A stretch of 64,000 nt of DNA, taken from contig CAZNPA010000002.1 in the NCBI GenBank assembly GCA_964575095.1, positions 101,204 through 165,203 of the forward strand. The letters run 5' to 3'. This DNA is from an uncultured Rickettsiales bacterium. Lineage in GTDB: Bacteria > Pseudomonadota > Alphaproteobacteria > Rickettsiales > SXRF01. The notes under the pieces are model-generated. The model was given only the letters and a program-made list of their open reading frames with translations. It was not told the origin of the DNA and did no database searches. The position numbers were made by a program, and so were the translations under genes. Shown here in pieces: positions 16,995 to 20,863 of this stretch (position 1 is its first letter; the number at the start of each line of letters is the position of its first letter).

Positions 16995-18800
16995 ATGCCA
17001 AAAGACCACGACAAACAACGCATGCTGACGCGCCGCGCCGTACTTTTCGGCGGCCTGCAAATGGGTACGCTGGCGGTGCTGCTTGGGCGGCTGGCCTATC
17101 TGCAGTTTTTCAAGGCCGGCGAATATAAGACGCTGTCGCAGAACAACCACATTAAGCTGCAGCCGGTGCCGGCGGATCGTGGCCGGATTTTGGACCGCGT
17201 CGGGCTGGCGCTGGCGGATAACGATAAAAACTACCAGCTCTTTGTCGATGCCAGCAGCCTTACGCGCGACACCTACCGTGCGACGATAGACCGGCTCAAC
17301 ATGCTCCTCAATCTGCCGGAAAAGAAATTGCAGCAGTTGCAGGCCGTGCGTCCGTCGTCGGCGATGCCGCCGCAGCCGGTCAAGGACCATCTGACCTGGG
17401 AAGAAGTGTCACTGGTGGAGCTGCATATATTGTCGTTACCGGGTGTGTATATAGACGCCGTGCAGCTGCGCCATTACCCGCTCGCGGATAAAGCCGCGCA
17501 CCTGACCGGCTATCTCGGCGCGGCGACACCCGAAGAAATGGACAGCGATGCCGAGCAAGCGCTGCTTCGCCTGCCGGAATTTAAAATCGGCAAGAGCGGC
17601 GTCGAGAAAATGCTGGAGCCGCGCCTGCGCGGCACGGCGGCGGTGCGCAAGCTCGAAGTCAACGTGCACGGCGTCGTCGTGCGCGAGGCGGGAAAATCAC
17701 AGAGCGTTCCCGGCGAGGACGTAAAACTCACCATCGACCGCCGCGTGCAGGACGTCATCGCCGAGAAACTGAAAGGCCAGAGCGGCTCGGCGGTGATGCT
17801 CGAGATCGCCACCGGCAACGTGCTGGCGCTGGTCTCCGTCCCGGCCTTCGATCCCAACCATTTCAGCTTCGGCATTCCGGCCGACGATTGGAAAAAACTC
17901 AACGCCGATAAATATATCCCGCTCCTCAACAAAGCCATCGGCGGCCAGTACCCGCCCGGCTCAACGTTCAAGATGATGGTGGGTCTGACGGGACTTGAGC
18001 GGGGCGTCATCAAGCCGTCGTTCAAAGTGTATTGCCCCGGTTATTTCATGTATGGCGACCACCGTTTCGGCTGCTGGAAGGCCGGCGGGCACGGCACGGT
18101 CGGTTATCACGAAGCCATTGAGCAATCCTGCGACACGTTTTTCTACACCGTTGCCGACCGCGTCGGTATCCAGCCTTTTGCCGACATGTCTCGGAAATTC
18201 GGCCTCGGCCAGTTTTACAATTTGGGCATATTGGGCGAGCGCGCCGGCTCGATCCCGGATCCGGCGTGGAAAATGAAAATCTATAAGCAGCCGTGGACCG
18301 GCGGCGACACCATCAACTGCTCGATCGGGCAGGGTTATGTGCTGTCAACGCCCCTGCAACTGGCGGTGATGGCGGCGCGTCTTGCCAGCGGCAAGGAAGT
18401 CGTGCCGCGGCTGCTTGTGCCAAAAGGCGAGGAGACGCCGCCATTTTTCGCCAATATCGACATTGAGCCGGATTTTCTGGAACAGACACGCGACGGCATG
18501 TCGGCGGTGGTGAATTCCGGCAGCGGTACGGCGCACGGCAGCTGCATCAACGATCCGCGCTATGCCTTCGCCGGAAAAACCGGCACGTCGCAGGTGCGAA
18601 AACTTATTCGCCTCGGCATGAACCAGAATTTATTGCCATGGGAAGCGCGGCATCATGGGTTGTTCGTCGGTCATGCGCCGGTGGACCAACCGAAATACGC
18701 CATCGGCATCGCCGTCGAGCACGGAGGATCCGGCGCCGCCGCCGCCGCACCGGTGGCCAAGGAAGCGTTCCTTGCAGTGCAGAAATTGGCGGACGTATAA
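16995..18800 (+). CDS. mrdA: Penicillin-binding protein 2
   Basis: RGRILDR, YPPGSTFK (SxxK), SCDTFFY, IGQG, GKTGTSQV. Confidence 0.96.
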   Translation: MPKDHDKQRMLTRRAVLFGGLQMGTLAVLLGRLAYLQFFKAGEYKTLSQNNHIKLQPVPADRGRILDRVGLALADNDKNYQLFVDASSLTRDTYRATIDRLNMLLNLPEKKLQQLQAVRPSSAMPPQPVKDHLTWEEVSLVELHILSLPGVYIDAVQLRHYPLADKAAHLTGYLGAATPEEMDSDAEQALLRLPEFKIGKSGVEKMLEPRLRGTAAVRKLEVNVHGVVVREAGKSQSVPGEDVKLTIDRRVQDVIAEKLKGQSGSAVMLEIATGNVLALVSVPAFDPNHFSFGIPADDWKKLNADKYIPLLNKAIGGQYPPGSTFKMMVGLTGLERGVIKPSFKVYCPGYFMYGDHRFGCWKAGGHGTVGYHEAIEQSCDTFFYTVADRVGIQPFADMSRKFGLGQFYNLGILGERAGSIPDPAWKMKIYKQPWTGGDTINCSIGQGYVLSTPLQLAVMAARLASGKEVVPRLLVPKGEETPPFFANIDIEPDFLEQTRDGMSAVVNSGSGTAHGSCINDPRYAFAGKTGTSQVRKLIRLGMNQNLLPWEARHHGLFVGHAPVDQPKYAIGIAVEHGGSGAAAAAPVAKEAFLAVQKLADV

Positions 18801-18839
18801 TTTGCTCCCCCCGCCAGCAGGGGAGGCGGTGTCCCGTAT

Positions 18840-19085
18840 CTATTCCTGCTCCAGCGCCCGCATCATTTCCGGCGGAATGATGAAAGCGCTGCTGGCGAGT
18901 TTTTTACGCAGGCTTTCCACCGTTTCCAGCGTCGAAAGGCAACTGCCCTCGACCTTAAGCAGCAGGCGCAGGCACTGCTCGTTGGGTTGGAATTGTTCGT
19001 TGCGTTCCATACGCATCAGCTCCTCGTCGAGCACGTTCACCATTGTGGCCAATGATTTCAGGATGTCTTGTAAGCGGGCGTCCAT
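18840..19085 (-). CDS. Small hypothetical coiled-coil protein divergent from XRE repressor
   Basis: 81-aa ORF; GAGGG upstream; helical heptad pattern. Confidence 0.65.
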   Translation of the reverse strand: MDARLQDILKSLATMVNVLDEELMRMERNEQFQPNEQCLRLLLKVEGSCLSTLETVESLRKKLASSAFIIPPEMMRALEQE

Positions 19086-19141
19086 GATGTTTTTCCCTCA
19101 TTTTTTATTTTCGGCGGCAGTCCAAACTACGCCCTATTATA

Positions 19142-19191
19142 TTGAGATAAACTCAACTTGAAGTCAAGAAAATATTAAGATAAACTCAACT
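19142..19191. promoter_or_regulatory. Twin operator sites TTGAG-N5-CTCAA
   Basis: 19142-19156 is a perfect palindrome (TTGAG ATAAA CTCAA); 19175-19189 has one mismatch (TTAAG ATAAA CTCAA). The 14-mer AGATAAACTCAACT repeats at 33-bp spacing. Confidence 0.75.
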
Positions 19192-19225
19192 GCTCGAATA
19201 ACGGTTTCCGTTTACAAAAGGAGGC

Positions 19226-19834
19226 ATGAACTTGTTGCCTTTAAAGCAGCTTTTGGCCAGACACGGCATCAGCCAGACCGATCTCGCGCATATTTTAGGG
19301 CGCGATAAGGCGGTGATTACCAACCTTTTTCAGGGAAAAAGGCGGCTTAAGGCCGATGAAGCCATGGTGATTGCGCGACGTATCGGCGTGCCGGTGGCGC
19401 AGATTCTGGGCATACAGGAGCAGCGCGGCGGCCTTAATGAACCGCCGCTCTTGATTCCGTTCCAGCATGAGCCGCAGTCGGGTAAGAAACTGGCCAACGT
19501 CGTCAAAAAAGAGGGGAAATTCTATCTTGAAATAGAGGAAAGCAAAGGCTATTCGCCCAAGGCCTATGCACTCGAAGCACGCGACGACAGCATGAACCTC
19601 TCCGGCATTTTACCCGGCGATATCGTGATTTCTGAGCTTGACCGCGCCTGCAAGCGCGGGCAAATCGTCGTCGCCCAGCATTACCAGGGCCGCGGCGCCA
19701 AAACCATCCTGCGCCTGTACGAGCCGCCGTTTCTAATGCCGCATTCGACCACGGCGTCGTTCAAGCCAATCCATCTCGATAAAGAAGAAGCGCGCGTCAT
19801 CTCGCCGGTCGTGAAATTGATACGGGGATATTAG
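19226..19834 (+). CDS. XRE-family HTH / S24 (CI/LexA-like) transcriptional regulator
   Basis: N-terminal HTH (GISQTDLAHILG.DKAVIT.L..GKRRL); C-terminal S24-like AYAL.ARDDSM...GILPGDIVI. AGGAGG RBS. Confidence 0.85.
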   Translation: MNLLPLKQLLARHGISQTDLAHILGRDKAVITNLFQGKRRLKADEAMVIARRIGVPVAQILGIQEQRGGLNEPPLLIPFQHEPQSGKKLANVVKKEGKFYLEIEESKGYSPKAYALEARDDSMNLSGILPGDIVISELDRACKRGQIVVAQHYQGRGAKTILRLYEPPFLMPHSTTASFKPIHLDKEEARVISPVVKLIRGY

Positions 19835-19854
19835 TAATTGGTCATTGAAAAGAG

Positions 19855-19925
19855 GGTAATTGGAAAAAAGGTAATTAGTAATTGGAAATAGCATTCCAAT
19901 TACCACCTTTCCAATTACTAATTAC
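19855..19925. repeat. Inverted GTAATT-based repeat array between convergent genes
   Basis: 18-bp perfect IR gtaattagtaattggaaa (19871-19888) / tttccaattactaattac (19908-19925), with extra ggtaattgg units. Confidence 0.85.
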
Positions 19926-19927
19926 GC

Positions 19928-20344
19928 CTACTCTTCATCAATATACTGCTTTTCCATTTTCTCGTGGCGTTCCTGCGCCTCGATGGTCATGGTGGCGATG
20001 GGGCGTGCTTCGAGGCGTTTCAGGCCGATCGGGTCGCCGGTTTCTTCGCAGAAGCCGTATTCGCCTTTTTCAATGCGCTTTAAGGCGGAGTCGATCTTGC
20101 CGATGAGTTTTAAATAGCGGTTGCGCGTCCTGAGTTCGACACCGGCTTCGGTTTCGAGCGAGGCGCGGTCGGATAAATCGGGCTCGCGCCAGTTTTCTTC
20201 CTTTAAATTATTGATGGTTTCCTGCGATTCGGCCAACAATTCCTCACGCCATTTGAACAGTTTCTGGCGGAAATATTCCAGCTGCGGCGCGCTCATGTAT
20301 TTTTCTTTTTCGGTCGGCTTGTAGTCCTTAGATATCCTCGTCAT
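19928..20344 (-). CDS. dksA: RNA polymerase-binding transcription factor DksA
   Basis: YMS..QLEYFRQKL, PDLSDRAS.ET, LRTRNR..KLI.KI, EYGFCEETGDPIGLKRLEARP. Confidence 0.97.
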   Translation of the reverse strand: MTRISKDYKPTEKEKYMSAPQLEYFRQKLFKWREELLAESQETINNLKEENWREPDLSDRASLETEAGVELRTRNRYLKLIGKIDSALKRIEKGEYGFCEETGDPIGLKRLEARPIATMTIEAQERHEKMEKQYIDEE

Positions 20345-20413: not shown

Positions 20414-20863
20414 TTATTCCGCTGCTTTTGCGTTTGCCATCTCCAGCTTCGCCAGCTCCACCGCGACGCGAAGCTCGATGTCCTCGATGAGCTCGGTCAG
20501 CCGCGGGTCGGCAACAGATTGTTTCTGAACGGAAAGTTGACGGCGCAAATCGACCAGCGTTGCGCCGGGGATAACGCCGGCCAGAAGCTGCTGCCGTAGC
20601 TTCTCCAGCGAATACAGCATATTATTACCTTGCAGCGCCAGTTTCCGGCGCCGCAATTCCTCTTCGGTGATTTCCTGCAGCAGCAGCATGTTGCTGACGG
20701 CAGCCGTCGCGGCGACGTCGCCGGGTTGCGCCACGGCCAGCGGCTCGTCGCTGCCCGACATTTCCAGTAATTCGGAAAAGGATTTTACGCCGGAGCTGGC
20801 AGAGGTTCTTTTCGTGCCGCCTGCCGATTTGACCGGACCATAGCCGCTGATTTTGGTGAGCAT
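20414..20863 (-). CDS. fliX: Flagellar assembly regulator FliX
   Basis: LLLQEI, G..ML..LEKLR..LL, DPRL..LIEDIELRVAVELAKL; sits between dksA and divergent flgI as in Caulobacter. Confidence 0.85.
   Translation of the reverse strand: MLTKISGYGPVKSAGGTKRTSASSGVKSFSELLEMSGSDEPLAVAQPGDVAATAAVSNMLLLQEITEEELRRRKLALQGNNMLYSLEKLRQQLLAGVIPGATLVDLRRQLSVQKQSVADPRLTELIEDIELRVAVELAKLEMANAKAAE

Follow-up and report, generated by a model that had tools for sequence, protein, structure and literature searches.

Between mrdA and dksA, in a window of 64,000 nucleotides (G000:C2:101204-165203) from the genome of an uncultured alphaproteobacterium labelled Rickettsiales, lies a divergent gene pair, whose products are a 202-aa repressor, built from an XRE-type helix-turn-helix (HTH) and an S24 domain, and an 81-aa helical-hairpin protein, with a spacer of 140 bp between the two genes. 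The genome (1.80 Mb, 1,802,374 bases, in 10 contigs) is estimated to be 100% complete. Our interpretation, which we hold with slightly more confidence than doubt, is that the pair forms a self-contained switch of two genes on the chromosome, of the phage-immunity type, resident in one Rickettsiales-labelled clade of uncultured Alphaproteobacteria and not part of a phage.

According to this interpretation, a dimer of the CI-like repressor would bind a palindromic operator, O1 (TTGAR-N5-YTCAA), located over the core promoter of the small gene, and keep this gene off. O1 would be centred approximately 44 bp upstream of the transcription start of the repressor gene, and a second site would cover the -10 element of the latter; because of this arrangement, the repressor probably regulates its own gene, as lambda CI does at OR2 and OR3. 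The small helical-hairpin protein would be the effector released upon inactivation of the repressor and, since the genome contains no other copy of the operator, it would represent the only plausible output of the circuit.

The repressor and its small partner

An initial annotation of this stretch, made from its letters alone, had described two divergent open reading frames (ORFs) directly following mrdA, the larger one combining an XRE-HTH with an S24-like domain. Both frames are present in the ORF list, the gene order agrees, and both domains are matched in Pfam: HTH_3 at residues 6-58 (29.1 bits), and Peptidase_S24 (PF00717) at residues 105-195 (33.7 bits, with a cut-off of 23.3). In PHROG, the repressor matches the repressor family phrog_4 (7.7e-16). 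Its AlphaFold2 (AF2) model, with a predicted local distance difference test (pLDDT) value of 87, has the full-length lambda repressor as its best Foldseek match (3bdn_A, E 8.9e-9), followed by LexA and UmuD'. With a TMt of 0.75-0.76 and a root-mean-square deviation of 1.8-2.6 against LexA C-domains, and a TMt of 0.72 against UmuD', the model has the beta-fold of the S24 proteins. The linker of the repressor holds an invariant LIPFQHEP block.

Single-sequence HMMER alignments to the LexA proteins of Pseudomonas aeruginosa and Mycobacterium tuberculosis contain no gap between GQ(I/V)VVA and L(L/M)P, and family-profile alignments to those of P. aeruginosa and Escherichia coli are gapless as well. 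In these alignments, Ser122 (within 'DSM') falls on the catalytic Ser119 of LexA, and Lys159 (G157-A158-K159-T160) on the catalytic Lys of the T-V-K-R/T motif (LexA Lys156). As aligned, this repressor keeps the Ser122/Lys159 dyad. The initial annotation had correctly recognized the Ser of DSM, but it read TILR in place of the TVKR of LexA and CI; this reading is out of register, and only one weak, gapped alignment to UmuD reproduces it, by placing Leu162 at the Lys position. Its remark that the linker, with IPFQHEPQSG, has no Ala-Gly site holds, as residues 78-91 contain no [AC]G. A Ser85-Gly86 pair is found about where the scissile bond would be expected, 36 residues before Ser122, which is near the spacing of LexA.

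Among 105 full-length homologues, the position of Ser122 is occupied by Ser in 84, Gly in 13 and Ala in 8, and at that of Lys159 a Lys is found in 56, the remaining 49 having a different residue; the complete dyad is retained in 48. Gly86 is retained in 13 homologues, and any Ala-Gly or Cys-Gly within residues 78-91 is present in 14. At position 86, the 48 proteins keeping the dyad have A in 11 cases, S in 9, G and W in 8 each, C in 6, N in 4 and V in 2. Most of the homologues at least 65% identical to the repressor have both the Ser and the Lys. Because the dyad is found in only 48 of the 105 proteins and no Ala-Gly or Cys-Gly is conserved, canonical self-cleavage is doubtful for this repressor; it is possible in this particular member, and is not a trait conserved in the family. 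The earlier description of the protein as 'probably non-cleavable' rested on the misaligned Lys, an argument that falls, but the statement itself may hold through the family drift just described. Other positions are near-invariant in the same homologues, namely F79 (105), P83 (104), D120 (103), A158 (103), T160 (103) and R163 (105) and, since these are kept while the Ser/Lys dyad drifts, their pattern suggests that the S24 fold serves in this family mainly for dimerisation or sensing.

Regarding the start of the repressor gene, a Shine-Dalgarno GGAGG stands 1 nt from the annotated ATG (window 19218-19234), and a TTG at 19232, two codons on, has the optimal distance of 7 nt. Most relatives conserve ATGAAYTTG, and the gene callers picked either start. 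Because GGAGG ends 1 nt before the ATG, translation may start at the TTG instead. Further upstream, in the leader (window 19196-19216 and 12 aligned loci), CTACA is conserved just 5' of the ribosome-binding site, and several loci present a short hairpin (here AACGG-TTT-CCGTT); this CTACA/hairpin element may exert translational control.

The 81-aa partner gives no match in Pfam, NCBIfam, PHROG or PADLOC, the latter returning only generic HTH matches for the module. Its AF2 model (pLDDT 91) consists of two antiparallel helices (H3-28 and H36-66) and a short tail helix, and the protein is predicted to be cytosolic, with no hydrophobic segment. Since it is modelled as a two-helix hairpin, and matches no HTH family, it is not a Cro-like HTH protein, in agreement with the initial annotation. 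A word-based homologue search returned only the protein itself, and a protein atlas search gave no usable match. In contrast, when 1.84 billion representatives were searched with a profile, 57 proteins were retrieved with E<=1e-3, 43 of them at E<=1e-10, almost all with a length of 63-90 aa. The small proteins from relatives share 25-39% mutual identity, compared to 57-73% for the repressor, and they constitute a small, fast-evolving, unannotated family of approximately 50 representative clusters. Many members end in a C-terminal F-[IV]-[IM]-P tail (F-I-I-P here), which the shorter members lack.

Foldseek searches with the model of the small protein returned nothing at E<=1e-3 in PDB or BFVD. 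Assigning a function from the fold was abandoned, as the best VIA-align result (Z 6.9, with CesA, EsxB and FlgN-type hairpins) is within the common range for helical models. A role as a binder of the RNA polymerase secondary channel, in the manner of the DksA/TraR hairpin, was also considered, and no evidence for it was obtained. Complex prediction for the repressor and the small protein gave a score of 0.00, which is uninformative either way.

Putative operators and promoters in the spacer

The spacer contains one perfect palindrome, O1, and an imperfect copy of it, site 2 (Table 1). The regions around both sites form a 20-nt direct repeat, 19/20 identical, 33 bp apart. The initial annotation had proposed twin TTGAG-N5-CTCAA operators with this spacing: the first site and the distance stand, but site 2 begins with TTAAG, and its left half is unconserved in relatives.

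The conservation of these elements was followed in an alignment of the 104 nt before the repressor start from 12 loci. All 12 have O1 in the form TTG-N-R-N5-Y-T-CAA, and 10 of them match the stricter TTGAR-N5-YTCAA; L065 shows a joint alteration of its two halves (TTGAA...TTCAA). The GTCAA block is kept in 11 loci, and ATAAACTCAAC[TA]G is exact in 10, its end always being 35 nt before the ATG. The right part of site 2, ATAAACTCAACTG, is conserved, with a possible repressor -10 (TAAACT) inside, and O1, GTCAA and ATAAACTCAACTG maintain a fixed spacing to the repressor start codon. Only O1 is palindromic in the relatives and, because the left half of site 2 is unconserved across the 12 loci, the near-perfect second palindrome is a peculiarity of this genome. 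The distant relatives L076 and L077 (41-43% identity), which have the same recognition helix, keep an O1-like TTGTG-N5-xxCAA, whereas L078, with a different recognition helix, has no O1-like site.

On the lower strand, the sequence TTGACT-17 nt-CAATAT can be read by eye as a promoter of the small gene, with O1 spanning its spacer and its -10. O1 is likely to be the main site for the repressor dimer, overlapping this putative core promoter, and the TAAACT within site 2 might function as the -10 for the repressor gene, in which case O1 would be near -44.

With up to one mismatch, the loose motif has three matches in the window against 1.65 expected, which is not significant alone. Genome-wide, TTGAR-N5-YTCAA occurs three times against approximately four expected, and the two copies outside the module, one of them inside recA, do not have the AT-rich spacer. 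By contrast, TT[AG]AGATAAACTCAA occurs twice in 1,802,374 bases, both times in the spacer between the two genes, and the arrangement of the elements is shared by all 12 loci of the alignment. The genome scan proposed together with the initial annotation thus places the operator motif at the module only and, because it occurs nowhere else, the targets of the repressor are probably limited to its own gene and the small gene.

Table 1. The gene pair, its control elements and its flanking features, in window positions
Feature	Position	Strand	Basis
mrdA, end of the mreB-mreC-mreD-mrdA run	16995-18800	+	
Small gene, 81 aa, cytosolic two-helix hairpin (predicted), unnamed family	18840-19085	-	ORF
Divergent control region, AT-rich, with operators and both putative promoters	19086-19225		sequence, 12-locus alignment
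Putative -10 of the small gene, CAATAT, 17 nt from the -35	19144-19139		by eye
O1, perfect palindrome TTGAG-ATAAA-CTCAA = TTGAGATAAACTCAA	19142-19156		sequence
GTCAA block; lower strand TTGAC, putative -35 of the small gene	19163-19167		alignment, by eye
Site 2, imperfect O1 copy TTAAG-ATAAA-CTCAA = TTAAGATAAACTCAA	19175-19189		sequence
Repressor gene, 202 aa	19226-19834	+	ORF, Pfam, AF2 model, Foldseek
Imperfect palindrome, 92 nt, between repressor and dksA	19834-19925		inverted repeats I1, I3, I4, I9
dksA	19928-20344	-	
fliX, followed by flgI and more flagellar genes	20414-20863	-	

Distribution and chromosomal setting

Of 36 genomes belonging to the same family, 10 gave a match to the repressor, nine at full length (58-73% identity) and one cut by a contig end; beyond the family, it was found in one other family, at 44% identity. 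Among GTDB species genomes, 16 loci with at least 33% identity were retrieved, all of them in metagenome-assembled genomes labelled Alphaproteobacteria or Rickettsiales except for one labelled Azospirillaceae, the remaining matches being weak, restricted to the S24 domain, and mostly from Bartonella. Presence is patchy within genera (1/4 in g5, 1/3 in g19, and 1/2 in g17). The two-gene unit of 1.1 kb, including its control region, is found across at least nine genera, with a divergence like that of MrdA (58-73% versus 59-65%).

Eleven loci have upstream DNA and a repressor of at least 57% identity, a count that includes the partial match of L080 (66% over residues 1-61). In 10 of them, a profile search found the small partner, encoded divergently just upstream of the repressor gene. 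In the exception, L074 (G005), as well as in the 44% relative, L078 (G037), the partner is instead an HTH_3 protein of 118-129 aa (118 aa in L074). L074 retains an O1-like site and GTCAA, and is a natural example of one partner being exchanged for another under the same control region.

In 6 of the 29 dksA loci of relatives (L036, L037, L039, L040, L043 and L049), the end of mrdA is 15-115 nt away from that of dksA. The relatives in which these genes abut include G004, G018 and G021, which carry the module elsewhere, and in no relative examined is the module found at the mrdA-dksA site. Since mrdA abuts dksA in relatives, carriers of the module among them, the sequences compared mark the module in this genome as a lineage-specific insertion of 1.1 kb between both genes. 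In the relatives, it has flgH on one side and a SPOR gene on the other, or secA and mlaF, or an Rce1-like gene or trpD and rpmF-plsX-fabH, or is found beside two-component genes. A link to flagellar functions, based on flgH, motA or fliX being near in three loci, was dropped, as the site described here is a secondary insertion by a conserved dksA-fliX block and the other loci are beside trp, fatty-acid, secA or two-component genes.

The initial annotation had assumed that rodA normally follows mrdA. In this clade it is dksA-fliX that follows, tail-to-tail (in the 6 of 29 dksA loci above), and rodA was located alone at C9:13191-14357 (TIGR02210, 429.7 bits), unlinked to the module. The missing rodA after mrdA is a clade trait unrelated to the module, and the mrdA/rodA link is incidental. 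The gene ftsW stands in murD-ftsW-murG at C2:303 kb.

The flanks of the module, mreBCD-mrdA on one side and dksA-fliX-flgI on the other, are housekeeping genes. There is no integrase in the window; the three Phage_integrase matches of the genome are at C4:61980, C2:24391 and C4:92531, the nearest match of this family being approximately 96 kb from the module. In the relatives, none of the 126 + 22 neighbouring ORFs belongs to integrase, terminase, capsid or tail families, and a PHROG scan of 34 unannotated neighbour ORFs gave no match for 31, one family of unknown function, and the two HTH partners. Neither protein of the pair has a tblastn match in 50,697 phage records, and IMG/VR returned generic repressors only, at 25-39% identity. 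No tRNA is adjacent to the module. A comparison of 10 loci revealed no conserved sequence at the borders of the unit, and its flanks have neither conserved terminal repeats nor mobility genes. The initial proposal of a phage-style divergent switch without a phage is borne out by the synteny comparison and by the search for phage remnants, which was negative both here and in the related loci examined.

The guanine-cytosine (GC) content of the module is 0.51-0.56 in its coding parts, near the 0.56 of the genome, and drops to 0.44 in the spacer. Contig pieces from other sequencing runs bridge both junctions of the module, and no alternative joint was seen. A search of sequencing runs with this stretch returned four DNA runs, all from one study, and no RNA run.

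The 92-nt palindrome next to the repressor gene is made of GTAATTGG(AAA) units and includes a terminator-like site at 19905-19876. GTAATTGG occurs 43 times in the genome and its complement 42 times, clustered, against a chance estimate of approximately 20 per strand; examples of such clusters are C1:292086-292131, C2:14660-14718, C2:60631-60685, C2:356436-356498 and C9:44048-44085. The palindrome looks like a copy of a dispersed family of repeats similar to repetitive extragenic palindromic (REP) sequences or miniature inverted-repeat transposable elements (MITEs), and it is probably a bidirectional terminator. We place it outside the module, as a flanking feature.

Alternative explanations and comparable systems

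Several observations weigh against our interpretation. The small protein is not indispensable to the circuit, given the HTH_3 partners of L074 and L078. The module is absent from 26 of the 36 family genomes searched and, because it is missing from most of these related genomes, it is dispensable and could be selfish rather than 'domesticated'. Motif scanning would miss a regulon acting via weaker or different sites. The 'two operators' may be one operator and a promoter element, and a consensus scan finds 0 sigma-70-like sites in 18700-20000, the promoter geometry being a by-eye reading.

Among the alternatives, the one that survives best is a RecA-dependent DNA-damage switch, even though we regard it as unlikely. 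Activated RecA (RecA*) would stimulate self-cleavage by Ser122/Lys159 at or near Ser85-Gly86 and thereby induce a small damage effector, such as a cell-division inhibitor or a co-regulator, making the pair an analogue of UmuDAb/DdrR or of the Gram-positive LexA/YneA-SosA. The gapless placement of Ser122 and Lys159 on the LexA dyad, the Ser-Gly at 36 residues from Ser122, and the retention of Ser and Lys in most of the closer homologues are all in its favour. So is the genomic background: recA is present (495.5 bits), LexA_DNA_bind (PF01726) has no match in this genome, and TIGR00498 matches only this repressor, with 22 bits against a cut-off of 110.95. DdrR would offer a precedent, as far as the excerpts of the cited papers describe it (PMC13689564, PMC11332147). 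However, the dyad is kept by fewer than half of the homologues, there is no conserved scissile Gly at position 86, Ala-Gly and Cys-Gly are absent here, and no repair gene is preceded by the operator. Moreover, LexA_DNA_bind is found in 4 of 61 related genomes (2 of the 36 in the family) and the module in 10 of 36, most relatives having neither by these queries. The clade seems to lack a canonical SOS repressor.

The only other S24 protein of the genome is a 237-aa XRE-S24 paralogue (C3:218147-218860; L029:1159-1872), which presents GDGM, with Gly at the Ser position, and a Lys in VSKRL. The 3' end of its gene overlaps a convergent gene for a 490-aa protein, by eye similar to NtrC-type sigma-54 activators.

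We find it rather improbable, although less so than the readings that follow, that the small protein acts on the repressor as an antirepressor or corepressor, in a feedback loop such as those of DdrR-UmuDAb, gp7-LexA, or phage small ORFs (smORFs) and cI. Small proteins of no known family that bind S24 or CI-type repressors are documented in excerpts of two studies (PMC11332147, PMC10432266), and the F-[IV]-[IM]-P tail resembles the invariant L-I-P-F block of the repressor linker, a resemblance only. As a sole role, however, feedback would leave the circuit with no output, since the locus has the only copies of the operator; the shorter members of the family have no such tail, and an HTH protein replaces the partner in two relatives.

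More speculative, and in our opinion improbable, is a combination in which the S24 domain would be a pseudo-protease sensor and the hairpin protein a new checkpoint effector in Rickettsiales-like bacteria, most of which gave no LexA match. Stress would remove the repressor from O1, and growth or division would be halted or transcription reprogrammed; the F-I-I-P tail might then compete with L-I-P-F-Q-H-E-P for the S24 cleft. The stress signal would be RecA* in the members keeping the dyad and something else in the others.

Little credence is given to a selfish addiction or toxin-like module, in which a growth-inhibitory small protein would be held off transcriptionally, an arrangement that would explain the patchy spread and the relocation. 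The patchiness within genera, the differing insertion sites and the fast evolution of the small partner (25-39% versus 57-73% identity for the repressor) would fit. Against it, no toxin-antitoxin or defence model is matched beyond generic HTH, type II toxin-antitoxin pairs are not typically arranged divergently, and the flanks carry no conserved terminal repeats or mobility genes. Least credible of all is a decayed prophage immunity region, with a CI gene and a first early gene left after deletion of the prophage: phage repressors give the best matches by family (phrog_4, 7.7e-16) and by fold (3bdn_A), and the distribution is patchy over several chromosomal sites, but in none of the loci examined is a phage gene beside the pair, no tRNA or integrase is adjacent, close relatives are absent from the phage and viral collections searched, the compact unit is kept across at least nine genera with a MrdA-like divergence, and its GC is near the genome mean.

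As a chromosomal switch of the phage-immunity type, the pair can be compared to several known systems. It shares with CI/Cro of lambda (also 434 and P22) an N-terminal XRE-type HTH with a C-terminal S24 fold, the divergent arrangement over a short operator spacer and, as far as the putative promoters are correct, a palindrome covering the promoter of the rightward type, together with a further site covering that of the repressor gene. Unlike them, it is not associated to a phage, its partner is a helical hairpin instead of a Cro HTH, it has one full palindrome and one half-conserved site where lambda has three graded operators, Ala-Gly is absent, and the dyad is unconserved in the family. By analogy, the closest working counterparts would be UmuDAb/DdrR, PrtR/PtrB, LexA with YneA or SosA, and the phage modules of a transcription factor (TF) and a smORF.

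In Acinetobacter, DdrR is described as a domain-less protein of 76-78 aa, predicted to be cytosolic, encoded divergently from an S24 regulator, and acting as a division inhibitor and corepressor, in excerpts of PMC13689564 and PMC11332147; the former also states that ddrR has no homologues outside this genus. Both systems have RecA and no LexA found, an S24 regulator divergent from a small, domain-less, cytosolic and lineage-restricted partner (81 aa here), and autorepression through a shared operator, which here is putative. According to the same excerpts, UmuDAb is derived from UmuD, cleaves itself on RecA activation, and controls several umuDC loci (PMC13689564, PMC11332147). The repressor described here, on the contrary, has an XRE-type HTH, an operator motif found at its own locus only and at no error-prone polymerase gene, and doubtful cleavage; for DdrR, the comparison is by description.

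In P. aeruginosa, the comparable genes are prtR and ptrB/prtN, and PtrB carries a DksA/TraR-type zinc finger, which is not present in the small protein of this study. PrtR is also a chromosomal CI-like repressor outside a complete phage that holds off a small effector, but it is cleaved after RecA activation and additionally controls pyocin genes through PrtN, as excerpts of PMC6429228 report. LexA with YneA, SosA or ChiZ likewise places an S24 repressor beside a divergent, small, fast-evolving protein with no homologues, whereas those repressors are true LexA proteins (winged helix, Ala-Gly) with large regulons, and the inhibitors are membrane proteins, according to excerpts of PMC13689564. 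The phage TF-smORF modules of Silpe et al. (2023) also combine an XRE-type factor with a divergent small ORF of no known family; in the excerpts of that work, the factor activates the smORF, which inactivates a separate cI, and the module is in a phage (PMC10432266). In the pair described here, the factor is the CI-like protein itself, and there is no phage.

Chromosomal CI-like repressors guarding one small gene are common and mostly unstudied, and in the few studied cases (DdrR, PtrB, YneA and SosA) the small gene encodes a stress effector with a new mechanism. The module described here offers a clean case for study, as a circuit of 1.1 kb with one operator region, no other copy of the operator, and an effector family that is unannotated. 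The natural series of repressors, from an intact to a lost dyad, could reveal to what uses the S24 fold is put when the constraint of self-cleavage is loosened, and the module could also show which inducible checkpoints are used by bacteria with no identifiable LexA.

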